Of a DNA stretch of 64,000 nt, positions 1,906-63,750 are shown piece by piece. The DNA is from Octopus vulgaris (Eukaryota). The stretch is taken from the NCBI GenBank assembly GCA_951406725.2, contig OX597815.1:182218001-182282000 (forward strand), in the 5' to 3' direction. A program made the position numbers and the translations under genes. Under the pieces are notes generated by a model that did not search any database, had not been told where the DNA came from, and was given only the letters and a program-made list of their open reading frames with translations. Each line of letters starts with the position of its first letter. Position 1 is the first letter of the stretch.

Positions 1906-2306
1906 CTTTTCTACTCTAGGCACAAGACCCCAAATTTTGGGACAGGGGTCCAGTCGATTAGATCGACCCCAGTACGCAACTGGCACTTAAATTTATCGAC
2001 CCCGAAAGGATAAAAGGCAAAGTCGACCCCGGCGGAATTTGAACTCAGAGCACGAAGACAGATGAAATACTGCTAAACATTTCGCCCGACGTGCTAACGT
2101 TTCTTATTTCTTTACTACCCACAAGGGGCTAAATGTAGAGGGGACAAACAAGGACAAAGGGATTAAGTCGATCACATCGACCCCAGTGTGTAACTGGTAC
2201 TTAATTTATCGACCCCAAAAAGATGAAAGGCAAAGTCGACCTCGGCGGAATTGGAACTCAGAACGTAAAGACAGACGAAATACCACACACTATTTCGCCC
2301 GGCGTG
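1906..2306 (-). mobile_element. SINE family A dimer (tRNA-derived head, Meta-domain-like body)
   Basis: Two copies of body GCCGAGGTCGACTTTGCCTTTCATCCTTTCGGGGTCGATAAA; B-box-like GTTCAAATTCC; flanking direct repeats CAGGCTAACAATATT (1891-1905) / CAGGTTAACAGTATT (2307-2321). Confidence 0.85.
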
Positions 2307-2977
2307 CAGGTTAACAGTATTGAAACGACAGCCACAACAGCAGTAACAACTCGAAGTCGAACAAACTGTGCAACGCAGTCTACTATGTTTAAAAGGACGG
2401 GATAGACACGGTTGAAATGCATTTGATCACAGGCCGGCTTAGATTAGACTATTATCATAGGCATCCGTGTCACTGCGCAGGAAACTGTAACAGTTGACTA
2501 GTTCTGGCTATAGATACCACACTGAGGATAGTTACAAAATCGAAAGGATCCTTAAGACTATACAGTGGAATAGTTGAAAGAAGTACGAAGATGTTTTCTA
2601 CTAAAATTCTGTTTGATCTACGGACTCGTAACTGTGTGAAAGGAATTAATGTCATTGATTTTTAATTATAACTTTGAAGTCAGCCTGTAATAGAAGTATG
2701 TTCAGATCATAAAATAATAGCTAACCTGTTGTTCTACTATGCAGTGCAGTAATAATGTTATATCAGAAAATTGAAATGAGATTTCTATGTAGCAGGATGT
2801 AACAACTGTAATGAAAGTTTTTAACCGACAAATAAACAGATTCAAAAGAGACAGTTAAGCAATCTATAAAGAATATAGGCTCTTCTAACTTTATAATAGT
2901 CCTTTTATTGAGTGACGTATATGTGTTTACGTTTGAATGTCTGTACGCACGAATGCAGGTGCAGGTATGTTTGTATA

Positions 2978-4500: not shown

Positions 4501-4566
4501 ATAAGGTGAGAGTTTTCGTCAAATAATAATAGCAACAGCTACAACAACTATAATAATAATAATACT

Positions 4567-5147
4567 CCTTTCTACTATTCGTACGAGGCCTGAAAATTTG
4601 GAGAAGGGGGTAAATCGATTTCATCGACCCCACTGTTTCACTGGTACTTACTTTATCGACCCCGAAAAGATAAAACACAAAGTCGACCTCGGCAGAATTT
4701 GAACTCAGAACGTAGCAACGGGCGAAATACCTATTTCTTTACTATCCTCAAGGGGCTAAACACAGAAGGGACAAACAAGGATAGACAAACGGATTAAGTC
4801 GATTATATCGACCTCAGTGCGTAACTGGTACTAATTTAATCCACCCCGAAAGGATGAAAGGCAAAGTCGACCTCGGCGGAATTTGATCTCAGAACTTAAC
4901 GGCAGACGAGATACCTATTTCTTTACTACCCACAAGGGGCTAAACACAGAAGGGACAAAGAAGGACAGACAAACGGATTAAGTCCATTATATCGACCCCA
5001 GTGCGTAACTGCTACTTAATTTATCGACCCCTAAATGATGGAAGGCAAAGTCGACCTCGGCGGAATTTGAACTCAGAACGTAACGGCAGACGAGATACCG
5101 CTAAGCATTTCGCCCGGCGTGCTAACGTTTCGGCCAGATCGCCGCCT
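4567..5147 (-). mobile_element. SINE family A trimer
   Basis: Three tandem bodies and a single complete head; internal junctions GAAATACCTATTTCTTT at ~4725-4741 and GAGATACCTATTTCTTT at ~4908-4924. Confidence 0.88.
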
Positions 5148-5164
5148 TCATAAAAATTACAACA

Positions 5165-7639: not shown

Positions 7640-8191
7640 TCTGGAACAAAGTGAGAAATTTAGAGGGGAAGAAACAAGCCGATTTTATTGAGCCAGTGCT
7701 TAGCTACATAACTGAGATTTTATTTTATCGACTCCGAAAGGCGAAGAGACGCAGCTGACCTCGGTGTGATTTGAACACAGAATGTAAAGAGTCAAAAGGT
7801 ATGCCACCAAAAGTTTGTTCGTCGCACTATCCACTCTACAAGCTCGCCACATTTTGTAATATTGATTTCTAATGTTTGCATAAGGCCAGCAATTTCGGGG
7901 AAAGTTATAAGTCGGTTACATTGACCCCAGTGCTCAAGTGGTACTTATTTTATCGACCCCGAAAGGATGAAAGGCAAAGTTGACCTCGGCGGAATTTGAA
8001 CTCAGAACGTAGCGACAGACGAAATACGTTCTGAGTTCAAATTCCGCCGAGGTCAACTTTGCCTTTCATCCTTTCGGGGTCGATTAAATAAGTACCAGTT
8101 ACGCACTGGGATCGATGTAATCGACTTAATCTGTTTCTCTGTCCTTGTTTGCCCTCTCTGTGTTTAGCCCCTTGTGGGTAGTAAAGAAATA
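7640..8191. mobile_element. SINE family A cluster: diverged copy plus head-to-head fold-back copy
   Basis: Diverged minus copy 7640-7850; minus copy 7865-8027 abutting plus copy 8027-8191; GGTACTTATTTTAT at 7940-7953 and 8192-8205. Confidence 0.8.
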
Positions 8192-8683
8192 GGTACTTAT
8201 TTTATTGAAACGATGTTCAAATTTCTCGTTGTGCTTAAGCTGTACACCATTATTATAAAGGATCAAAATCTCAGAAGCACATAATAGGCAGGAAAATTAT
8301 TCTTTTCTAATTTACTTGTGTCACTTTATGCTCTCAGTGGAAACCGCTTTGGCATTCACATTTCCTTTCATCTTCCCAGCACCATTAAAATAAATTACAA
8401 TCTCGTATCTACGTTTTGTCATCATATTCCGGCTCATTTGTTCTTTAAAGTTTGTTCATATTTATTTATATTCCAAACCGTTTATGAGTTATTTTATACA
8501 ATTAAAAACTGTTTTAACCCCTTTAATCTCCCAACCTTTAGGACTTCAAGATATGTTACTTGGAAACCACTTTCCTTGAAATTAAAGCGAAGCGTGCTTA
8601 AATGGGCACATAAATTTGTAAACACATTTCAATACACACACACGAACAAAACACATATGTAAGTATGTATGTATGTATGTATG

Positions 8684-8736: not shown

Positions 8737-8941
8737 GATCCAAACAAGAAAGCACAAAAAAAACACAACAACGCGAGGACGTGGAACAAATATAGTATTA
8801 TTGGACGCTCAGGAAAGAAGGAAAGGAGGATTTAACGTTTCGAGTGGAGCTCTTCGTCGGAAACATAGGAGAAGGAAAGATCCAGAGAAGGGAAGACAGG
8901 AAAAATAAATCGCCAACGGTACACACGCGGTCACATTTTGA
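8733..8941 (-). mobile_element. Short (TA)n-inserted PLE-terminus-like element, family H1, with hammerhead motif (8831-8863)
   Basis: Homologous to 30093-30300 and 31710-31890; flanked by (TA)n on both sides. Confidence 0.7.
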
Positions 8942-9062: not shown

Positions 9063-9299
9063 ATATTTCTTTCTTTATTGCCTACAGGGGGTTAAACATA
9101 GAGGGGAGAAACAAGAACAGACAAAGAGATTATGTTGATTATATCGATCCCAGTGCGTAACTGGTATTTATTTAATCGACCCCGAAAGGATGAAAGGCAA
9201 AGTCGACCTTGGTGGAATTTGAACTCAGAACGTAACAGCAGACGAAATACTGCTAAGCATTTCGCCCGGCGTGCTAACGTTTCTGCCAGCTCGCCACCT
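9063..9299 (-). mobile_element. SINE family A monomer
   Basis: Full head GGTGGCGAGCTGGCAGAAACGTTAGCACGCCGGGCG, body and AATAAAGAAA tail. Confidence 0.88.
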
Positions 9300-9356
9300 C
9301 ATACCATAATACCGTAAGGCATTGGGGCCAGCAATCTACCGTTTGCTAACAATAAA

Positions 9357-9751
9357 CTTTTCTACTCTAGGCACAAGACCCGAAATATTTGGGGAAGGAG
9401 CCAGTCGATTAGATCGACCCTAGTACGGAACTGGTACTTAATTTATCGATCACCGAAAGGAGGAAAGGCATAGTCGACCTCGGTGGAATTTGAACTCAGA
9501 ACGTAAAGGCAGACGAAATACCTATTTCTTTATTACCCACAAGGGGCTAAAGACAGAGGGGACAAACAAGGACATAGGTATTAAGTCGATTACATCGACC
9601 CCAGTGCGCAACTGGTACTTAATTTATCGACCCCGAAAGGATGAAAGGCAAAGTCGACCTCGGCGGAATTTGAACTCAGAACGTAACGACAGACGAAATA
9701 CGGCTACGCATTTCGCCCGGCGTGCTAACGTTTCTGCCAGCTCGCCGCCTT
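9357..9751 (-). mobile_element. SINE family A dimer with TSD
   Basis: 16-bp direct repeats GTTTGCTAACAATAAA (9341-9356) / GTTTGCTTACAATAAA (9752-9767); internal junction GACGAAATACCTATTTC at ~9512-9528. Confidence 0.9.
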
Positions 9752-11330: not shown

Positions 11331-12645
11331 CGAGGGACGTTCAATAAGTAATGCCTCTGACCCACTTGCAGTTGTTTGATCTAGCTGAAATTTTGCATGT
11401 GCAATCATTTATATCTCTATAGAGTAAGTGGCAAATTACAGATATAGATTGAGTGGAAAATTACAGCTCTGAATTAATTGTGGTTTCTGATTTACAGGTG
11501 TTTGAACCGAGTCAAGTGTGAAATGGAGCCTGTTGAGTGTCGAGCAGTGATCCGGTTTTTGTATTTGAAAGGACGCACACCGCGGGAGACTTTTGATGAA
11601 ATGAAAGTAATTTATGGTGATGATGCCCCATCATATGACCTTGTAAAACGCTGGCATCGTGAATTCAAACATGGTCGGAACTCTGTGGAAACAGCTCCCA
11701 GATCTGGTCGCCCCTTCTGCCATTGATGAGGCATCTGTCCGTCAAGTTGAGGCTGCCATTTTGGAAGATCGACGCACAATTATTCGCCAAATAGCCCATG
11801 AGGTCAAGATTAGTACCGGGTCTGTGGAAACTATCATTCATGACCATTTGCATAATGAAAAGGTGTCTGCCAGATGGATTCCCAGGTTGCTCACGCCTTT
11901 CCAGAAGCAAGAACACGTCGAGTGCTCGAGGGTGAATTTGGAGATGTGCCAAGAAGATGAGTCAAAATTTTTCAAAAGACTGATTACACAGGATGAAACC
12001 TGGGTCCATCACGATGATCCAGAGACCAAAGCCCAGTCAATGCAGTGGAAGCACCGTGACTCACCCCCTCCAAAGAAGGCAAGTGTGCAGCCCTCCGCTG
12101 GCAAAGTCATGCTCACAGTCTTCTGGGACCAGGACGGAGTAGTGATGACAGATTTCCTGGCAAAGGGTACCACAATTGCAGGAGCCTATTATGCTTCACT
12201 TTTGAAGAAATTAAGAGAAGTTATCAAAATCAAGAGGCGGGGCAAGATCAGCAAAGGCATCCTCCTCCTGCAGGACAACGCTCCGGTCCATAACTCGCTT
12301 GTCGTCAGATCAGAAGCACAGGCGTATGGCTATGAACTCCTCCCCCATCCCCCTACTTTTCTGACCTTGCACCCTCTGATTTTCACCTCTTCCCAGTCAT
12401 GAAGTTGTTTTTGAAAGGAAAGCGTTTCCCAGATGATGCAGCCTTGATTTCTGAAGTCACGTTCAGGTTGGAGGACCAAGCTGGGTTCTTCTACAAAAAC
12501 GGTCTCCAGAGCTACATCAAACAATGGGAGAAATGCGTAACTCTGGGTGATTCCTATGTAGAAAAAGACCAATAACTGTGCCAAGTTTCGTTGCTCTACT
12601 GCTATAGGAAGTGGGTCAGGGGCATTACTTATTGAACGGCTTTCG
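11331..12645 (+). mobile_element. Full-length mariner transposon (~1.3 kb)
   Basis: Imperfect TIRs CGAGGGACGTTCAATAAGTAATGCCTCTGACCCACTT / AAGTGGGTCAGGGGCATTACTTATTGAACGGCTTTCG; TA on both sides. Confidence 0.95.
11523..12575 (+). pseudogene. Mariner DD34D transposase with two frameshifts (irritans/Himar1-like)
   Basis: HTH region and RSGRP, WIPRLL, DETWVHH, QDNAPVH, then shifted-frame YFSDLAPSDF and C-terminus KCVTLGDSYVEKDQ*; frameshifts at ~11715 and ~12355. Confidence 0.92.
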
Positions 12646-12649
12646 TATA

Positions 12650-12810
12650 TAGGGAGAGTTCACGAAAAAAACAAAAGACGAAGACAGGTGGTGTACAAAA
12701 CAAACATATGTATTAGTATAACGCTCAGGAATAGAAAAAGTCTTTTACGTTTCGAGCCTACGCTCTTCTACAGAAAGGAACACAGAAAAAAAACAAGGAG
12801 AGAAAAAATA
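12650..12810 (-). mobile_element. Short PLE-terminus-like element, family H2, with hammerhead motif
   Basis: Homologous to 45174-45360 and 58777-58960; minus strand CTTT-CTGTAGA-A-GAGC-GTAG-GCTC-GAAAC-GTA-AAAG. Confidence 0.65.
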
Positions 12811-13721: not shown

Positions 13722-15654
13722 TATATTAAATTAGAGATAAAGCCACTATTAGGCAAATCAAACAGTGAAAAGCATAAGCCAATACATAAAATTTATTTTA
13801 AAATATAAAAGTTAAAATTAAAATAATTTAAACTTATAAATTTTAAATATATACATACAAATATATATATATGTATATTTTTATATTTATATATTATTTT
13901 ATTTATTAATTTATTTATTTATATATTAATTTTTTTATTTTTATTATATAAATATCAAAAGTATTAGAAGTTTAATAAAAGATAAAGAGTAAAATACTAC
14001 GATCGTTTCATGGCTGTACCATTTCGAATAACAATAAGTTAAATTCAATTAATAATTCGAATTATGGTTACAGTCAATCTTCAGGTTAATTGAAATATTT
14101 TTAAAATAATCAGAAATATTTAAACAACATTTTTAAGATATAAATAATATAATAATTTTACTTATAATAAACTCTATTATCAAACTAGAAACTTAAAACT
14201 TAACGGTTATGATTATATCAAAATCGATTATAATGTTAAATATTAATTTTAATTTTTAAGGTAAGAAACCCACCAATAATCTAATATCGGTAATAGTCTA
14301 TATCTAATTACATAAATATTTTTTTTAAAAATTACTATTATATATAAATTATCAATGAAAATATATAAATGTATATAAATATTATAATTAAGATCTAAAA
14401 TAATCTCTATAAATAAATATATATGCACATATAATAAAGACCTAATAAATTACCTAATAAATTAATTTTTCATATTTAAACATGAAATAGCTAATTTCAA
14501 AAATACAAACAAACAAACTTAAACGAACTTTCGGAAATCTTATATTTAAAATACTTATAGAAATAATCAATTCGTAGTTATATAGTATCGAATACATACT
14601 AAAAATACTATAAATATACTTATCAATGGGAATAAAACTAGCAAATATCAATTTAAAAAGACAATAACTAAGTTATGCTATTAAGTTAGACATGGCCTGG
14701 ACTAATCTTTGGTCGAAACATATCTAAGTTTATCTAAGTTTATCTAATTTTAATTATAAGAAATTTAAAACTACAATTAATGCTACGATTTGATTATTTC
14801 TATAAGTGTTTTAAATATAAGATTTCCGAAAGTTCGTTTATGTTTGTTTGTTTGTAATTTTGAAATTAGCTATTTCATCTTTAAATATGAAAAATTAATT
14901 TATTAGGTAATTTGTTAGGTCTTTATTATATGTGCATATATATTTATTTATAGAGATTATTTTAGATCTTAATTATAATATTTATATACATTTATATATT
15001 TTCATTGATAATTTATATATAATAGTCATTTTTTAAAAAAATATTTATGTAATTAGATATAGACTATAACCGATATTAGATTATTGGTGGGTTTCTTACC
15101 TTAAAAATTAAAATTAATATTTAACATTATAATCGATTTTGATATAATCATAACCGTTAAGTTTTAAGTTTCTAGTTTGATAATAGAGTTTATTATAAGT
15201 AAAATTATTATATTATTTATATCTTAAAAATATTGTCTAAATATTTCTGATTATTTTTAAAATATTTCAATTAACCTGAAGATTGACTGTAACCATAATT
15301 CGAATTATTAATTGAATTTAAATTATTGTTATTCGAATTGGTACAGCCATGAAACGATCATAGTATTTTACTCTTTATCTTTTATTAAACTTTAAATACT
15401 TTTGATATTTATATAATAAAAAGAAAAAAAATTAATATATAAATAAATAAATTAATGAATAAAATAATATATAAATATAAAAATATACATACATATATAT
15501 ATATATATTTGTATGTATATATTTAAAATTTATAAGTTTAAATTATTTTAATAAATTTTTAAATTTTAACTTTTATATTTTTAAATTAATTTATTGGCTT
15601 ATGATTTTCACTGTTTGATTTGCCTAATAGTGGTTTTATCTCTAATTTAATATA
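13722..15654. repeat. ~1.9-kb AT-rich inverted repeat (arms ~860 bp, spacer ~205 bp), PLE-like
   Basis: 13722-14577 is the reverse complement of 14783-15654 with scattered substitutions; each arm has a CTGAAGA...GAAACGATC hammerhead-like motif. Confidence 0.9.
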
Positions 15655-16773: not shown

Positions 16774-17177
16774 TTGATATTGCCTGTTAGGTCCAGGTTT
16801 TATGTCAACAATTTCTATGCTTCGCAGCAAGGCTGGTAGACTGAATCCTTCGCCCACTTGGTCCTGTTTAGTAAAGTTAAGCCTGATATTAAATTGGATA
16901 ATTTCTTCTGTTTGTGGACATGTCGATAAACTATAGGTGTTGTATGTACTACTTCTTTCTGTATCAATATAGAGATTCCTTACATGATTGGTTTTCCTGG
17001 AATAGAAATAGAATCCAAATTTATGTCAAATCATCCTTACCAACTTACAAAGGAAAGCGCAGTGGTCCTTTACACGTGTTAAATTTAATCTCAGGTTCGC
17101 TTGACTAGGAATGACTTAATGGAACAAATTTCGGCATCTATAACAGACTCCCCCATCTAATGTCTGTTACTAAAATA

Positions 17178-17336
17178 TTCTTTGTCTATTCTAGGCACAA
17201 GTCCCGAAACATTTGGGGAGGGGGCCAGTCAATTAGATCGACCCTAATACGCAACTGGTGCTTAATTTATCGACCTCAAAAGGATGAAAGGCAAAGTCGA
17301 CCTCAGCGGAATTTGAACTCTGACAGACGAAATCCC
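17178..17336 (-). mobile_element. SINE family A copy, head truncated at LINE junction
   Basis: Body plus tail type 2 (CTAGGCACAAG on +); ends at GACGAAATCCC where the LINE tail starts. Confidence 0.8.
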
Positions 17337-18555
17337 AATTTCTTTATTGCCCACAGGGGGCCAAGCACAGAAATGGACAAAACAACTGATTGGAATCAGT
17401 AATATGTTATGATTTTACATAAAATATGAATATAAAAATTATATAAAATATATAAAAAATCGAATGAAATTAACAATACAGAGACAACACAAATAGAGCG
17501 ATGATCAGGCCACGTTCCGACCCTACAAGCCCCAATCTATCGCTGGTACTATTTTTGTTCTTCTTTTATAGCCTATTCACACAGTTCCTTGCACGCACAA
17601 CACTCGTGCAACATGCTTCCATCTCTTTTTGAACATACTCTCCGACAGACACCTATTCTCCAGCCACACCTTCCTTTTCAAATGAAAAGTAAAAAATGAT
17701 CGTAAATCGTGGCCGGAGATAAAGTTGCCTGTCTTAATCCCTTTTATCCTAGTCTTCCATACTGCCTCTTTTGCTAGTGCTACAACCGTGAGTAAACAAT
17801 TCTTACCTTCGTTCGTTAAAACTTTCGCTGGGTCAATTTTTATAAGTGACTCAATCGACAGCTGTACTCTTCCTTCGCTGGACAACAGGTGTTCAGCATA
17901 CGCCCACATTTCAGATATCTCCGGACACTGGACAATAACGTGAGGGACGGTTTACCTGTCTACCCGCATCTTGGACAGGTCGGTGACTGACGCTTACCTT
18001 GTCTTGCGAGCTTATCCCAAACGGGCGAGGTACCTCTGTAACATTGCCAGGACAAGGACTTTTGGAAGTTGTCCAACGTTCTCAGGCTGTCCAGTTGAAT
18101 AAACCCGAGACCTAGTGTCGCCCCCAGGTCATCGTCACATTCAGACTCTACCAATCCACTATATAAAATTCGAGTAGAAACCCCACCGCTGGCGTTGCCC
18201 GAGCGCCGGAATAGCTGGAGGGCCTTACGGCACTCTTTATGCCATTCACTTGACCTAGGTCTACGAAAATACCAGGCTTCCTGTTCGCAAAAACTTTTGA
18301 ATTCGGAGAACATTTGTCTGGCCAGCGGAGACCACACCCGTTCATCATCCAGGAGAATCCAGAGATGCCTCAACCTCAACGCATTCCTGCGCATCATTAA
18401 CCAAGGCATCTCTAAACCTCCCTTTAACGGCTTTTCACAACAGACAGAGCATTTCACAAGTGGTGTCCTGCTCTTCTATAAAAAGCGAAAGAACTGTCTC
18501 TCCAATTTGATCAACTACGAATCCGGATATGGCACGACGGTCAGTGCGTATCGGA
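17337..18555 (-). mobile_element. 5'-truncated Tx1/L1-clade LINE (ORF2 C-terminus with zinc knuckle, 3' UTR, tail)
   Basis: KGGLEMP...LRLRHLW...CPRCG...VPHVIVQCPEISEMW...FHLKRKVWLE...FKKRW; T-rich 3' UTR ending GGCCCCCTGTGGGCAATAAAGAAA. Confidence 0.8.
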
Positions 18556-19139
18556 GGTTTGATGCTCATTACAGGCTAAAGAAGTTGACTTTTGACAGGG
18601 TTTTAATCTACCGAATCATTGGTAAGTTTATTTTATTGTATGTAAAGTTTCCATACTTCAAGAAACGTTGTTGTTTTTGAGAACACATTTTAGAATTAGT
18701 TAAACTTTTACTACTCACCCTACAGTCATTAAATAGCTGTGATGTCATCCTTTCACCGGTGAGGCAAGCTGAAGCAAACATTTTATGGGACACAATACAA
18801 GTCAGTGTGAAAATGTCAGTTGTAATTAGAATTTTAATGAAGATTATTAATGAGTATAAAACCAGTGGTTTGACTTATATGTCTCCTGAAGTGGACTGAA
18901 TAAAACTTGTTTCTGTTTTCGTAAATCGTTGATTTCTAAACTTTGGTTTATTCTTCTTTCAACTATGAATTTTCTCAGTTAATGTCTAAATATTGTATTT
19001 CACACTTTCTTTAACTAACTTAAGCCTCGGGTAGTAAAAAAAAAAAATGTAGCAAAATTGTTGAAAACTGCTAGAAGTTAAATGTACCCCCCCATCTTTA
19101 TTGAAATGGTTTGCCGTCGTTGGTGATAATTAGTGTTGA

Positions 19140-19467
19140 TGCTTGTTTGTTGAGCGAAGCGGTCTTCGTGGGAAAAGTCCGAAACGTTGTCCTTTGCTAT
19201 TCGTAAGGCCCGCAGCAGAGAAAGCATGTCAGCCCACGACACCGAGAGCATCGACGGATGGATGAATGCGCATCCAGGCTCAGCGGTTGCCTAGGAAGTC
19301 GGAGACAGGAAGAAAGAGTACAACAGGGGTCGCCACCCCCTGCCGGAGACTCGTGAAGCTTTAGGTGTTTTCGCTCAATAAACACACACAACGCCCGGTC
19401 TGGGAATCGAAATCGCGATCCTCCGACCGCGAGTCCGCTGCCCTAACCACTGGGCCATTGCGCCTCC
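19140..19467 (-). mobile_element. tRNA-derived SINE (family C)
   Basis: A-box TGGCCCAGTGG and B-box-like TTTCGATTCCC, followed by a non-tRNA GC-rich body; no acceptor stem closure. Confidence 0.75.
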
Positions 19468-22525: not shown

Positions 22526-22528
<3 letters not shown>

Positions 22529-22674
22529 CGCCGAGGTCGACTTTGCCTTTCATCCTTTCGGGGTCGATAAATTAAGTACCAGTTACGCACTGGGGTCGAT
22601 GTAATCGACTTAAATTCGTTTGTCTGTCCTTGTTTGTCCCCTCTATGTTTAGCCCCTTGTGGGTAATAAAGAAA
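22526..22674 (+). mobile_element. 5'-truncated SINE family A (tail type 1) inside (TA)n
   Basis: Body plus tail TTGTCCCCTCTATGTTTAGCCCCTTGTGGGTAATAAAGAAA. Confidence 0.88.
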
Positions 22675-26319: not shown

Positions 26320-26815
26320 GGCGTGTGTCGAAAGACGTTTGCTTCCCAAACCCGTGATTCCTGGTTCAGTCCCACTGCGTAGCACCATCACCAAAAGTCT
26401 TCTACTATAGTCTCGGGCCAGCCAAAGTGGATTTGGTTGATGGACAAGAGGGCAGGTGTGTCGAACTTCCTCCTTCACCGAAAGCCAATTGCAGAAAAAT
26501 GGTCATTGAACGGCAGTGTTCTAGCATGGCCACATCCTTTGGGCCGAGGCATATAAAGAAATAAGATATATATATGTGTGTGTACACTTGTGTGTGTGTC
26601 TGTCTTTGTCTCTCTGCTTGTCCCCCACCATACTGCCTGACAACCGATATTGATATGGTTACGTCCCCGTAAACTAGAGGTCGGAAAAAGGATTCGACAG
26701 AACAAGTTCTAGGCTTTAAAAAAGTACTAAGGTCGATTCGTTCGGCTGAAATTCTTTCAAGGTGGTGCCCCAGCATAGGCGCAGTCTAATGACTGAAGTA
26801 GGTAAGAGATGATAT
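26320..26815 (+). mobile_element. SINE family B (tRNA head, CORE-like domain, internal microsatellite, stem-loop tail), diverged
   Basis: GGTTCAGTCCCACTGCG...CTTCTACTATAG; 3' part TTACGTCCCCGTAA...GGTGCCCCAGCAT...GACTGAA. Confidence 0.7.
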
Positions 26816-29363: not shown

Positions 29364-29406
<43 letters not shown>

Positions 29407-29407
29407 C

Positions 29408-29972
29408 TTCAAGTACCACTTGAAAAGGAAAGTGAGAGTAGAGAGGCAAGTTTTGTCTAGCGAATGTTTTAAAAAAAGATGGGTGAATGTAGCAAGGATG
29501 GCACGTATGAATGACGAAGCCACCTTGAGCATAATCCTATGAGCCCAGAAATTGAAAACAGAGGGTTACCCACTTGCAAACAAATGTGGTAACATATAAC
29601 AATATTGACCAAGGTTACCGTGATCTTTTTCGTAGGCTTTTCTTCCCACGGATAAACCTTACTTGCTTTCCCCTTTACACCATATATCATAACACTGTGA
29701 TACACGATCCCTATTGATCGTTTATTTTTCCTCTTCCCCTTTTTCCCCCTTATTTCTTCTTTTTTCATTTGTCTTTTCTTTTGTTCCTTTTCCTTTTCTA
29801 CTTTTAAAAAATTTTTTTTTTGTTCTTTTTCCCTTTTACGATCCCTTTTGATCGAAAACCTACGCCACCTTTTTTTGTTTCTTTTGTTTTTGTTTTTTTC
29901 ATCCCCCAAAAGAAAAGCTCTACCTTGTAACTTGTCCCATCTGTGTGCAGCCCTGTGTGGCCAATAAAGAAA
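29408..29972 (+). mobile_element. 3' end of Tx1/L1-clade LINE inside a (TATC)n tract
   Basis: FKYHLKRKVRVERQVLSSECFKKRWVNVARMAR is homologous to FHLKRKVWLENRCLSESMFKKRWKHVAR in the 17577 ORF; T-rich UTR; tail AGCCCTGTGTGGCCAATAAAGAAA; TATC repeats on both sides. Confidence 0.8.
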
Positions 29973-30092: not shown

Positions 30093-30300
30093 CCTTTCAA
30101 AATGTGACCTCGTGTGTACCGTTGACGATTTTTTTCCTCTGTCTTCCCTTCTCTGGATCTTTCCTTCTCCTATGTTTCCGACGAAGAGCTCCGCTCGAAA
30201 CGTTAAACCCTCCTTCTTTCCTGAGCGTCCAATAATACTATATTTGTTCCACATCCTCGCGTTCTTGTGTTTTTTTGTGTTTTCTTGTTTGGATTAACTT
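30093..30300 (+). mobile_element. Family H1 short element with hammerhead motif (30174-30208)
   Basis: GTTT-CCGACGA-A-GAGC-TCC-GCTC-GAAA-CGTT-AAAC; flanked by TA-rich microsatellites. Confidence 0.72.
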
Positions 30301-31560: not shown

Positions 31561-31709
31561 ATATTAAATATAAATATACTCGAAAATATGTACTGATATT
31601 TTAGTAGGTATAAGAGTGTAAAAATAATGCCTACAGATACATATACAAAGAGGGTTTTATTATATGTATACACTCACACATACACACATATATGTGCATA
31701 TATGTATTT

Positions 31710-31890
31710 TTTTTCCTCCGTCTTCTCTTCTTTGGATCTTTCCTTTTTCCTATGTCTCTGACGAAAAGCTCCGCTCGAAACGTTAAATCCTCCTTCTTTC
31801 TTTCCTTTCCTGGGCGTCCAATAATACTATACTTGTTCCACGTCCTCGCATTGTTGTGTTTTCTCTTTATATTTTCATGTTTGGATTAAC
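31710..31890 (+). mobile_element. Family H1 short element with canonical-core hammerhead motif (31755-31787)
   Basis: CTGACGA-AAAGC-TCC-GCTC-GAAA-CGTT. Confidence 0.7.
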
Positions 31891-34714: not shown

Positions 34715-35273
34715 AACTTATATATATATATTTAGCTTATATATATATATATATTTACCTTATATATATATTTATTATATATATATATATATATCTTTAC
34801 TTTATATATATATATGTATGTATGTATAATACACACACACACGAGTGTCTACAAAGAAACTTCCCTACCACCCTCCCCCTCTCAGTATCTCCTTGCAGTT
34901 CTTACAGCTAATGTCTACAGGCGTGAGAATGTGTGGCAGTATACAAGTGTCTAGAGGTTTATGAGTGTGTGTTCATAGTGTAGCGCATGTACGGCTGTAC
35001 TGCATAATTGAACAAGACGTCCAGAACGTGATGAGAAAGATAGTTTCCTCACCTAGACCAAGACGAAAAACCCTTTCTCAATTATAATATATTATGATAA
35101 AATATTTGTCTAAATTTACATTTTCTGTACGCTTGCTCTGTATCTCTATAGACGATGGATGATGAATTTCGGAGAGACCTGAAAAAGATGAAAAATAATT
35201 TCTAATGACATTCGAATCTGAAGTTGCTACTCGTCTCCCGGAAATTAAATATATTTTTTCCAATCTATTTGAA

Positions 35274-35700
35274 GTGGCTGCGTGGTAAGAAATTTGCTTC
35301 TCAACCACAAGGTTCAGGTTCAATCCTACTGCGTGACACCTTGGCTAAATGTTTCCTATTATAGCCTTGGGCCGAGTAACCCCTTTTAAATGAATTTTGT
35401 AGACGGAGACTGAGAGAAACCCATTGTATATATAAGTCTGTCTGTGTGTCTATCTGTGTGCGTGTGTGTGTCTTCTCTCTGTCTCTCTCTCTCTATCGAT
35501 CTATCTAGCTAACAGATGTTGGTGTGTTTACCTCCCCGAAACTTAGCGGTTCGGCAAAAGGATTCTATAGAATAACTACTAATCTTATAGAGAATAAGCC
35601 CTGGCGTCGATTTGTTCTACTACCGTCAGAACGTAAAGAGAGACGAAATGCCGCTAAGCGTTTCGCCCAGTGTGCTAACGTTTCTGCCAGCTCATCACCA
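35274..35700. mobile_element. SINE family B (+) fused to an inverted SINE A head fragment
   Basis: TGGCTGCGTGGTAAG...GGTTCAATCC head and CTTAGCGGTTCGGCAAAAG 3' part; 35626-35700 matches the SINE A head on minus. Confidence 0.75.
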
Positions 35701-45173: not shown

Positions 45174-45478
45174 AGGGAAGCTTTATGAAAATAGACAAAA
45201 GACGAAGGCAGGTGGAAAACAAACAAACAATTGTATTAGTATGGCGCTCAGAAAATATAAATAAAACAAGTCTTTAACGTTTCGAGCCTACGCTCTTCAA
45301 CAGAAAGATACACAGAGAGAAAAAAAAAACACAGAAAGAAGGAGAGAAAAAAATGCGTGCAGTAACTAACGAATCAACATGGCGATCTGATTTCGGCCAG
45401 AGGTCAAAGATCAAACATGAGACGCGAGAGCGAAATAAGGGGAGATAATAGGGTTGATAATAGGGTTGAATGACCAGC
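45174..45478 (-). mobile_element. Family H2 element with hammerhead motif (~45271-45308)
   Basis: Minus TCTTT-CTGTTGA-A-GAGC-GTAG-GCTC-GAAAC-GTT-AAAGA. Confidence 0.68.
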
Positions 45479-49569: not shown

Positions 49570-50920
49570 AGTACACGTCTAAACACAAGCACATACACAC
49601 ACAAACCCAAACTCACACACACATTCGCACATGCACACGCACACATACACACACATATAACTTGGATACAAATGTCAATAAAAATATAAAAATTGTTACA
49701 GAGAATGCTGACAAACAGAAAAAAATGGGACAAATATGTGAAAATTATTATCTGCTGAAAGAGAAGTGAATTTTGTAGGATTCTTTGCAGTAAGGAGAAT
49801 TTCGAAAAGGAAATGAAATATGCAATTAAAATGGTGGAAGTCGGATTTATTAATGGATTTGCTTAACAGCTTAAATTTTAAATAAACCTAATTACATTTA
49901 CATTGAAGGGTGTGGTGAGCATTCAATATGCCAGAAAGTGCATTGGGGTGTGACAGATTGCGTTTTGGTATTAATATAGCTTCTGTCGTTAGTTATTTTT
50001 TATATACCCGATAGCTATTCGCGACTTCATTACCTGAATAGTGACTGAAATTCCATAGATTTGACTGGTGTGAGTCTACCGGACGCCTGCCATTGAAAAG
50101 TCGGGTCACGTGGAAATAACGTGATCTTGCAGTTCTGGTGCCTGTAGCGAATGATATATTTCTTTACTACCCACAAAGGGCTAAACGCAGAGGGAACGAA
50201 CAAGGACAGACAAACGGATTAAGTCGATTACATCGACCCCAGTGCGTAACTGGTACTTAATTTATCGACCCTGAAAGGATGAAAGGCAAAATCGACCTCG
50301 GCTGAATTTGAACCCAGAACGTAACGGCAGACGAAATACGGCTACGCATTTCGCCCGGCGTGCTGACGATTCTGCCAGCTCACCGCCCTCCTGTTGCGGA
50401 TGATATACACACACGATCTACATCTCGTAGCAGACGTGCACTACATTTACTAAACGTATTATTACACATCCAAACACAAGCACATACACACATACGAACT
50501 CAAGCAAACACAAACTCACACTCACATGCACACATGCACACGCGTGCGCACACACACATAACTTGCATACAAATATCATTAAAAATATAAATAGTGTTAC
50601 AGAGAATGCTGACGAATATTAAAAAATGGGACAAATATGTGAAAATTATTATATGCTGAAAGAGAAGTGAATTTTGTAGGATTCTTTGCAGTAAGGAGAA
50701 TTTCGAATAAGGAAATGAAATATGCAATTAAAATGGTGGAAGTCGGATTTATTAATGGATTTGCTTAACTGCTTAAATTTTAAATAAATTTAATTACATT
50801 TACATTGAAGAGTGTGGTGAGCATTCAATATGCCAGAAAGTGTATTGGGGTGTGACAAATTGGATTTTGATATTAATACAGCTTCTGTCGTTAGTTATGT
50901 TTTGATATACCGGATAGCTA
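49570..50920. repeat. Local direct duplication of ~450 bp (49570-50017 and 50462-50920)
   Basis: Long shared blocks such as GCTGAAAGAGAAGTGAATTTTGTAGGATTCTTTGCAGTAAGGAGAATTTCG. Confidence 0.92.
50159..50389 (-). mobile_element. Full-length SINE family A monomer with 18-bp TSD
   Basis: CCTGTAGCGAATGATATA (50141-50158) / CCTGTTGCGGATGATATA (50390-50407). Confidence 0.92.
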
Positions 50921-56480: not shown

Positions 56481-56690
56481 CTCTTTACTCTCTCTTTTAC
56501 TCTTTTACTTGTTTCAGTCATTTGACTGCGGCCATGCTGGAGCACCGCCTTTAGTCGAGCAAATCAACCCCGGGACTTATTCTTTGTAAGCCCAGTACTT
56601 ATTCTATCGGTCTCTTTTGCCGAACCGCTAAGTGACGGGGACGTAAACACACCAGCATCGGTTGTCAAGCAATGCTAGGGGGACAAACAC

Positions 56691-56730
<40 letters not shown>

Positions 56731-56901
56731 ATATATACGACAGTCTTCTTTCAGTTTCCGTCTACCAAATCCATTCACAAGGCATTGGTCGGCCCGGGGC
56801 TATAGTAGAAGACACTTGCCCAAGATGCCACGCAGTGGGACTGAACCCGGAACCATGTGGTTGGTTGGTAAGCTACTTACCACACAGCCACTCCTGCGCC
56901 T
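56481..56901 (-). mobile_element. Full-length SINE family B
   Basis: A-box TGGCTGTGTGG, B-box GGTTCAGTCCC, CORE-like CTTGGGCAAGTGTCTT, internal (TA)/(TG) tract, tail GCAGTCAAATGACTGAAACAAG(TAAAAGAG)n. Confidence 0.88.
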
Positions 56902-57870: not shown

Positions 57871-58728
57871 ATCTGTATATTTTTATTGTTGTCCATTACG
57901 TTCTTCCTTTCTTCGATATATATGTATAATGGCTACTTATATATTTTACGCATATATATATATCTCCACACGTATATAAGTAGACATTTTGTATTACAAT
58001 ACAGTGAGACTTTTACGCAATACATAATTAGAAATGCAATAATTTTTGACACCAGCAAGAGGCTTTAAATTTTCTCTAAGGTGAATTTTGATTTGATCGA
58101 ACGAAAAGATATGAAAGTCTTCAAGAAAGTGTTTACTAGAAAATATTCCATTATATTCCGAGCAACACCGTTACAAAGCAAAATGGGTGCTATTTATGTA
58201 GTGCCAGTGCAAACAAAATTTAAAAGAAATGCTATTCACTTTGAGTCTACCTGCAACCGTGTCGGGAAATTTTTACAAAAATAAAAGAAAATGCTAAAAG
58301 CAGATTCCGGAAATTTGCTATTGCAAAATATTTCTATGCTTTCAATTTTTTCCTTTATTTCGCTATTCTGGAGGAATGGTGCAGACAGTAAAAAAGAAAA
58401 AAAGACAGCAGAAAATTACATCTTTTTCATTCTTTGTTTTTCATCAATGAATACTATGGCACCGCCTAAAAGGGACACTGAACGCCTTGAAGTACTTTGC
58501 CGAAGAAATTGATCCTATTGTTTCCTTTTTTCATCTTTGAAACCTGGTATTTATTCCATCAATCTCTTTTGCTGACCTGCTGAGTTAAGGAGACATAAAC
58601 AAACCAACACACAGTTGTCAAGCTGTGGTGAAGGACAAACACATGCATAATAACATACACATGTATATATGTTTTATGTTTTACTTGTCTCGGTCATTAG
58701 ATTGCGACCACATGCTGGGGCACCGCCT

Positions 58729-58779: not shown

Positions 58780-58975
58780 GGAAAGTTTACGAAAATAAAC
58801 AAAAGACGAAGGCAGGTGGAGTACAAACAAACAAATGTATTAGTATAGCGCTCAGGAATAGAAATAGAAAAAGTCTTTTACGTTTCGAGCCTACGTTCTT
58901 CGACAGAAAGATACACAGAAAAAAATAAGGAGTCAAAATACAAGGAGAGAAAAAAATGCGTGTCGGAGCTAACGA
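58777..58975 (-). mobile_element. Family H2 element with hammerhead motif (~58874-58911)
   Basis: Minus TCTTT-CTGTCGA-A-GAAC-GTAG-GCTC-GAAAC-GTA-AAAGA; adjacent to (TA)n. Confidence 0.65.
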
Positions 58976-61852: not shown

Positions 61853-62059
61853 TATTTCTTTATTGCCCACAAGGGGCTAAACATAGAGGGGACAAACAAG
61901 GACAGACAAAGGGATTGAGTCGATTATATCGACCCCAGTATGTAACTGGTACTTTATTTATCGACCCCGAAAGAAAGGCAAAATCGACCTCGGCGGAATT
62001 TGAACTCAGAACGTAACGGCAGACGAAATACCGCTAAGCATTTCGTCCGGCGTGCTAAC

Positions 62060-62062
<3 letters not shown>
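61853..62062 (-). mobile_element. SINE family A monomer between microsatellites
   Basis: Tail type 1, body and most of the head. Confidence 0.88.
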
Positions 62063-62113
<51 letters not shown>

Positions 62114-63032: not shown

Positions 63033-63347
63033 GAGGAGCATGGCTCAGTGGTTAGAGCGTCGAGCTTACGATCGTGAGGTTGTGAGTTCGAATCCCGGGC
63101 CGGGCTACGTGTTGTGTTCTTGAGCAAGACACTTTATTTCACATTGCACAAGTTCACTCAGCTGTAGAAATGAGTTGTGACGTCACAGGTGCCAAGCTGT
63201 ATTGGCCTTTGCCTTTCCGTTGGATAACACTGGTAGCATGGAGAGGGAAGGCTGGTCTCCCATATACAACCTTGCCCGGACTTGTGCCTTGAAGAGTAAC
63301 TTCCTAGATGCAATCCCATGGTCAGTCATGACAGAAAGAGGGGCCTC
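63033..63347 (+). mobile_element. tRNA-derived SINE (family D, CORE-like)
   Basis: A-box TGGCTCAGTGG, B-box GTTCGAATCCC, then GTTGTGTTCTTGAGCAAGACACTT. Confidence 0.82.
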
Positions 63348-63426: not shown

Positions 63427-63750
63427 TGGCTGTGTGGTAAGAAGCTTGCTTACAAACCACATGGTTCTGGGTTCAATTCCACTGCAAGGCACCTTGGGCA
63501 AGTGCTGCCTACTCTAATCTCGGGCAGTCTAAAGCCTTGTCAGTTGATTTGATTGACTGAAACTGAAAGAAGCCCGTCGTATATATTTGTGTGTGCGTCT
63601 TTGTGTCTGTGCTTGCCCCTCCACCATGTTTGTGGTGTTTACGTCTCCGTAAACTAGTGGTTTGGCAGAAGAGCACGATATATAAATTACTAGGATTAGA
63701 AAGAATAAGTCTAGGGGTTGATTTCTTTGACTAAAAGGCGGTGCTACAAG
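63427..63750 (+). mobile_element. SINE family B
   Basis: TGGCTGTGTGGTAAGAAGCTTGC...GGTTCAATTCC...CCTTGGGCAAGTG; 3' part GTTTACGTCTCCGTAA. Confidence 0.82.

Follow-up and report, generated by a model that had tools for sequence, protein, structure and literature searches.

Does the 3′ tail of a tRNA-type short interspersed element (SINE) of Octopus vulgaris derive from the long interspersed element (LINE) that would mobilise it, and to which clade does that LINE belong? The question is raised by a 64,000-nt stretch of contig OX597815.1 (positions 182,218,001 to 182,282,000, forward strand; hereafter the window, in whose own numbering all positions are given), where two truncated LINE copies, LINE-a and LINE-b, end in a sequence (tail 1) that also ends nine units of a SINE family, SINE-A. 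We consider it likely that a lineage of Tx1-type LINEs has this tail of approximately 45 nt as its native 3′ end, and that the tRNA-type SINE captured it for copying by the LINE ORF2 protein (ORF2p). Tail sharing between SINEs and LINEs is known as such, and the statement of the initial annotation that a partner of the L1 group or Tx1 type would be uncommon is supported: among 58 surveyed SINE/LINE pairs, only the three from plants or algae have a tail of L1 origin (PMC3472496), and the listing in PMC3747384 names the maize and Chlamydomonas pairs and no Tx1 pair (here and below, statements on cited papers refer to the parts of their text available to us).

The initial annotation had aligned the LINE end at 29932–29972 (plus strand) with a SINE end at 22634–22674 (plus strand), with 33 of 41 positions identical without gaps, which we confirmed. 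When 100 order-3 Markov simulations of the 64-kb window were searched on both strands, the 41-nt SINE majority tail reached only 22–27 identities in its best ungapped match, 27 being the chance maximum. With one 3-nt gap allowed, the match of the LINE-a tail to the SINE majority tail covers 29923–29972, with 39 identities in 50 columns, and the similar end proposed for the second LINE on the minus strand is present as well (17385–17339; 30/41 ungapped, 38/47 columns gapped). With at most 3 mismatches allowed, a 23-nt motif of the tail matched the window 11 times and each of 100 shuffles not once, and an nhmmer profile built from the nine SINE tails recovered the same 11 copies, including the two LINE ends (E 1.2e-7 and 1.4e-8), with the next match in the window only at E 1.8. 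All 11 copies end on the identical base and none is followed by poly(A). Nine of them terminate tRNA-type SINE units and two are tail-only, and both tail-only copies form the ends of the only two L1-group ORF2 fragments of the window, on the same strand as ORF2 and approximately 200 and 430 nt from the two ORF2 stop codons; the chance of both falling behind ORF2 stops is about 2.5e-5 by a rough, post-hoc estimate. With the tail present at both ORF2 ends, and without any further tail-only copy in the window, it is very probably native to the LINEs.

A tblastn search of the window with 123 ORF2 relatives found two loci only, LINE-a and LINE-b. LINE-a (29405–29972, plus strand) is a 5′-truncated L1/Tx1-type stub of 570 bp within a (TATC)n microsatellite, with (TATC)n on both sides, and consists of the last 44 ORF2 codons and the stop codon (29408–29542; 26 of 35 amino acids identical to the C-terminus of P0002, an ORF2 relative bearing zf-RVT), a T-rich 3′ untranslated region (UTR) of about 380 nt (29543–29922; 169 T in the 389 nt of 29543–29931) and the shared tail (29923–29972), which contains AATAAA and has no poly(A). 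Self-BLAST of the window, run with microsatellites masked, found no match of this UTR elsewhere and no alignment with the LINE-b UTR before the tail. LINE-b (17339–18565, minus strand), likewise 5′-truncated and of L1/Tx1 type, retains approximately 325 C-terminal codons from the region behind the reverse transcriptase (RT), with a CxxC..HxxxxC knuckle, the reading frame being interrupted by in-frame stops at two places and, near 17960, by a frameshift; its stop codon lies at 17579–17577 and is followed by a UTR of about 190 nt and then the tail (17339–17385), which is 34/43 identical to that of LINE-a. The ORF ends of the two copies share 57 of 80 bases and their UTRs align significantly over the last 43 nt only (34/43, E 6e-5), on which grounds we assign the copies to different subfamilies. 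As the UTRs of two subfamilies align in nothing except these last 43 bases, the tail is most likely the true LINE end. The initial annotation had further described both partners as visible in the window; two LINE ends do carry the tail, and what is visible of the LINEs is fragments, with no RT domain in either copy and no LINE domain detected by Pfam on the ORF pieces of the window.

The clade of the LINE was therefore approached through ORF2 relatives of LINE-b, the ORF2 of which is 56% and 52% identical to P0001, a protein carrying RVT_1 and zf-RVT. Atlas clusters for P0001 are of generic RVT_1/zf-RVT type only, its nearest full-length relatives are 946–1161 aa long at 37–52% identity, and P0004 and P0005 combine PF03372, PF00078 and PF13966 (endonuclease, RT and zf-RVT). 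The best PDB match is L1 ORF2p both for P0001 (E 1.6e-17, with R2 at E 1.6e-6; 65 bits on L1 ORF2p and at most 30 on R2) and for the full-length P0005 (E 8.8e-69, with R2 at E 5e-16), and no L2, CR1 or RTE protein was among the PDB matches of either. A search from another relative, P0038, returned fish and turtle proteins, with four among the 120 matches listed named ‘transposon TX1’, and P0001 scored 141–157 bits against these four fish proteins, a set that is biased since it was found by a search seeded on P0038. In a FastTree of 121 sequences (2 of the 123 proteins being left out) the P0001 clade is sister to the P0038 group (0.93), later shown to hold the TX1-named proteins. In a second tree of 54 sequences (a subset of 55 less P0133, which had short coverage) the two groups are joined only in a wider clade (0.966) that has a Chara sequence inside; both trees were built without CR1, L2 and RTE references. 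This disagreement on placement counts against a firm Tx1 assignment, as does the absence of a significant match of LINE-b DNA itself to 16 named proteins (best E 0.048). The assignment thus rests on the bridging relative, with no RT in the window and no significant match of the LINE-b DNA. The knuckle motif in LINE-b is what the window displays of an L1-type domain layout, both copies being C-terminal only. Through the close relatives, membership of the L1 group is well supported and membership of the Tx1 clade is likely, so that the L1/Tx1 label of the initial annotation holds for the group and is provisional in its stricter form, the two trees disagreeing and no RT being present.

The SINE side of the pair is a non-coding, interspersed element of about 232 nt, whose head has A-box-like and B-box-like motifs by eye and an acceptor-like stem that pairs, and folds into a long hairpin; ARAGORN and Rfam, run on the window, gave no match. 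We aligned 16 SINE-A units or fragments, of which nine have tail 1, five have three other tails, one is head-only and one is a diverged relative, so that one SINE body carries four different tails. Two full-length monomers with tail 1 lie on the minus strand: 50159–50390, of approximately 232 nt and lying between direct repeats of 18 bp that differ at 2 positions, and 9070–9300, for which a target site duplication (TSD) was searched and none found. A nearly full monomer (61855–62064, minus strand) is located between (TA)n and (TACA)n, and the 5′-truncated unit used for comparison in the initial annotation (22526–22674, plus strand) lies inside (TA)n. The remaining tail-1 units are parts of multimers: a dimer of head, core and tail 1 followed by core and tail 2 (9357–9751, minus strand), lying between direct repeats of 16 bp that differ at 1 position; a trimer of head, core and tail 1, core and tail 1, and core and tail 4 (4560–5149, minus strand); a 5′-truncated dimer of tail 1 and tail 2 (1907–2307, minus strand), at which inspection by eye suggests a repeat of 14 bp with 2 mismatches and a script scored only 11 bp with 2 mismatches, which is the background level; and an inverted dimer (7862–8195) composed of a tail-1 unit on the plus strand (8025–8189, then five junction bases) and a tail-3 unit on the minus strand (8027–7862). 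A SINE 3′ half with tail 2 (17170–17336, minus strand) adjoins the LINE-b tail. Of 12 end pairs tested, 2 had clear direct repeats that do not lie in microsatellites, and random pairs scored equally in 4/300 cases for the 18-bp repeat of the monomer and in 2/300 for the 16-bp repeat of the dimer; the test was uninformative at three SINE loci with microsatellite flanks. The other tails lie on the minus strand at 1907–1950, 4560–4600, 7862–7905, 9357–9400 and 17170–17215, some with ATT-like ends, and no partner LINE for these three tails was seen in the window. Between tail 2 and the end of tail 1 there is a faint resemblance (24/41).

Several observations weigh against a tail captured from these LINEs. 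The window holds only two LINE copies, both old and truncated, and bacterial and archaeal contigs provided no confirmed further copy (25 pattern matches to P0001, none confirmed) and no match to the tail motif. A TSD was not resolvable for LINE-b with either end point, and the microsatellite flanks of LINE-a are uninformative in this respect. Furthermore, the LINE tails match the SINE majority tail less closely (33/41 and 30/41) than the SINE copies do themselves (34–39/41, leave-one-out), and for this reason neither LINE is clearly the direct donor; the donor was probably a third LINE subfamily, or LINE-a and LINE-b are old copies. A reversed direction, in which a LINE lineage took its end from the SINE, is another possibility. 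SINE tail 1 does have approximately 15 more tail-specific bases upstream, matched by neither LINE. Yet the tail is common to two LINE subfamilies that are 71% alike at the ORF end, and the SINE copies are 90–98% like their majority, which makes the LINE tail appear the older of the two, and it is the SINE body that carries four exchangeable tails; transfer from SINE to LINE is thus very improbable.

For the capture from a LINE, we infer the following sequence of events. RNA polymerase III would transcribe the SINE from its head, and a template switch would have joined the end of the LINE to the body of the SINE. ORF2p would most likely bind the tail in both RNAs, target-primed reverse transcription would start at the fixed base, and insertion would yield duplications of 14–18 bp. 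AATAAA is kept in both LINE tails and in four of the nine SINE tails, which fits an origin of the tail in an RNA polymerase II transcript. From the observed tail sharing and fixed end we infer that the LINE enzyme recognises the tail stringently. The stringent-type partnership proposed by the initial annotation was not borne out by the structure of the tail, for which the prediction is a weak hairpin, with a stem of 4 bp and a loop of 5 nt. No compensatory changes were found at any of the 11 predicted pairs across the 11 sequences, a comparison of low power, LINE-a breaks one predicted stem pair, and none of seven tail folds was better than its shuffles (z −1.5 to +0.9); these results also count against recognition of the tail.

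This lack of a structural conservation signal is equally what one would expect if the tail was LINE-derived and the LINE was relaxed, priming on an A-rich end or poly(A), with the tail kept for example for 3′ end formation through AATAAA. The AATAAA does lie within the conserved stretch, and the Tx1-mobilised SINEU ends in poly(A), with no shared tail detected according to the available text of PMC4494074. Such a LINE is nevertheless improbable for tail 1, as poly(A) is found at none of the 11 ends, all of which end on the same base, conservation reaches approximately 35 nt upstream of AATAAA, and five of the nine SINE tails have lost AATAAA and retained the remainder of the tail.

The tails also recur in a particular place. 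Tail-1 ends at 4734, 4918, 8189, 9525 and 17339 join one site in the SINE head, located at the loop of the long head hairpin, and the junction motif occurs five times, at four SINE ends and at the LINE-b end; both junctions of the trimer are at this site, and that of the 1907–2307 dimer is at a different site nearer the start of the head. By location, the 11 tail-1 ends fall into five at the head site, three in microsatellites and three elsewhere, with LINE-a in (TATC)n and LINE-b at the head site. Each of the five SINE units that bear another tail is the 3′ partner of a tail 1 (four directly, one via the inversion), none has a complete head, and four begin at the recurrent head site. The repeated joining to one site hints at targeted insertion, as one enzyme inserting tail-1 RNAs there would explain the junctions. 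The enzyme proposed above might, more tentatively, prefer TAT-containing sites (the microsatellites) in addition to the site in the SINE head, where insertion would build multimers, some of which would then move as units; were a SINE to insert into a homologous SINE, the 5′ join would be seamless. Target preference, template jumping and amplification of dimers are all possible sources of the recurrent junction, and the template jumping might start from head-cleaved RNA. Against targeted insertion, the site is uninterrupted in one head fragment and in three monomers that are full-length or nearly so, an inverted dimer and a TSD-flanked dimer suggest movement of whole dimers, and the self-BLAST shows no SINE head upstream of LINE-b, which counts against a simple nested insertion at that locus.

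The initial annotation missed that a SINE 3′ half directly follows the LINE-b tail, with the junction seen in the SINE multimers, and this bears on an alternative that it had raised itself, namely that the LINE tails are 5′-truncated SINEs inserted independently behind the UTRs. For LINE-b, the insert would be a truncated dimer of tail 1 and tail 2. The LINE-b junction is the same as three junctions of SINE multimers, and the missing SINE head upstream of LINE-b is as expected for a truncated dimer. In addition, the tail-1 half of the 7862–8195 dimer is inverted with a 3-nt overlap at the break, which is the geometry of twin priming, and another dimer is flanked by a single TSD, both of which suggest that dimers move as whole units. 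With dimers that seem to move whole and a shared junction, the LINE-b tail might be what is left of a truncated SINE dimer, which also speaks against a native LINE end at this locus. Against this alternative, it requires two insertions of approximately 48 nt, both in sense orientation and both after an ORF2 stop, with no further tail-only copy in 64 kb; the shortest SINE unit with tail 1 is about 150 nt long and both LINE matches fade at 47–50 nt. The supposed LINE-b dimer has no flanking duplication (the best 14-mers have at least 3 mismatches, and none lies beside 17385), and LINE-a has no second SINE unit. We thus consider truncated SINEs an unlikely source of the two LINE tails, which as the only tail-only copies both stand at ORF2 ends, with the junction keeping this explanation alive for LINE-b.

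A LINE-derived tail on SINE-A has counterparts in other genomes. The stringent pairs (UnaSINE1/UnaL2 and others with L2, CR1 and RTE, and in bivalves with CR1, CR1-Zenon, L2 and Nimb; PMC11481361) are alike in their tRNA-type head, exchangeable LINE-shared tail and fixed end (PMC3747384, PMC4824008, PMC11481361). The octopus pair differs from UnaSINE1/UnaL2-type pairs in its partner, which is of the L1 group and Tx1-like, and in having no supported stem-loop. Closer to it are ZmSINE2/3 with LINE1-1_ZM of maize and SINEX-3_CR with L1-1_CR of Chlamydomonas, where the last 45–50 nt or so of an L1-clade LINE are likewise conserved across subfamilies and shared with the SINE (PMC3472496, PMC3747384); in the stringent L1 lineage of maize the last 45 nt are conserved in the same pattern (PMC3472496). 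Unlike these pairs, the present one is from an animal genome, with a LINE nearer Tx1, no poly(A) and no compensation, whereas the maize hairpin is compensated. The crocodilian SINEU, linked to Tx1-Mar, resembles it in being a SINE linked to a Tx1 LINE, with a shared target preference inside another repeat (putative in the octopus) and tandem insertions at one site, the latter described for Tx1-mobilised SINEU-3, and has TSDs of 10–16 bp (PMC4494074). SINEU elements differ in that their heads are of small nuclear RNA type and their ends carry poly(A); for SINEU-1, no LINE with a matching 3′ end is given in the available text of PMC4494074, the link being the target. In the octopus, a tRNA-type SINE is connected to the LINE by their common tail, and this SINE is itself the putative target.

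In the available parts of the literature, we found no report of an animal tRNA-type SINE with a Tx1-derived tail, a search to which Repbase Reports, Dfam, Albertin 2015, Ohshima & Okada 1994 and supplements could add one. The word Tx1 is absent from the available text of the mollusc partner papers PMC4824008 and PMC11481361, and no Tx1 tail pair is named in that of PMC4824008, PMC4758252, PMC5786205, PMC7245038, PMC10294476, PMC3531059, PMC13295347 and PMC4176376; the 29 mentions of ‘TX1’ in the accessible text of PMC4176376 are apparently names of mutants. O. vulgaris has 80 L1-Tx1 families, 13 of them with recent activity, and its SINEs are abundant and for the most part unclassified (PMC13282606); for octopus genomes, which hold L1-Tx1 elements and abundant SINEs, no partner analysis is reported in the available text of PMC13282606 and PMC8967140. 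Among the closest known elements are the octopus tRNA-SINEs (OK, OR1 and OR2; tRNA-Deu and CORE classes), with no LINE partner named for them in the available text, and three short motifs of the window were absent from two of the three MetaSINE supplement files (PMC4824008) and from the relevant paper texts. That SINE-A is the first animal tRNA-SINE with a tail of the Tx1 clade, recognised stringently without poly(A), and that the LINE endonuclease targets its head hairpin, so that both LINE and SINE insert into older SINE copies and give rise to multimers and tail swaps, is a combined proposal that we regard as doubtful at present.

According to a standing hypothesis, recognition of a particular tail at the RNA 3′ end was ancestral in the L1 group, and the requirement was relaxed to poly(A) later, in mammalian L1; three plant and algal SINEs support it (PMC3472496). 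An animal Tx1-type LINE sharing a conserved, poly(A)-free tail with a SINE would, if true, be the missing animal case for ancestral recognition. It would also provide a 45-nt element open to mutation and, in the octopus, families that are possibly still active, name the motor of an abundant SINE and explain the origin of its multimers.

The window contains several further repeats. A Mariner-type DNA transposon at 11332–12600 (plus strand) has 30-bp terminal inverted repeats (11338–11367 and 12609–12638) and contains an open stretch of 251 aa with a match to Transposase_1. A second family of SINE-like repeats with a tRNA head is represented by 19100–19465 (minus strand) and 63033–63140 (plus strand), which are 74% alike over 96 nt, and a third, with an internal microsatellite, by 26330–26810, 35273–35622, 56495–56892, 58534–58723 and 63427–63748. 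Two related families of short repeats with a common CGTTTCGAG core (8741–8931, 30107–30296 and 31707–31888; 12662–12792, 45183–45303 and 58787–58925) are what we take to be possible ends of Penelope-like elements. The region 13739–15637 matches its own reverse complement (13938–15422), with inverted ends at 13739–13843 and 15526–15637, and is by its sequence a large palindrome or foldback element. Finally, a local duplication of 360 bp (49660–50017 and 50561–50920, 93% identity) has the SINE at 50159–50390 between its copies.
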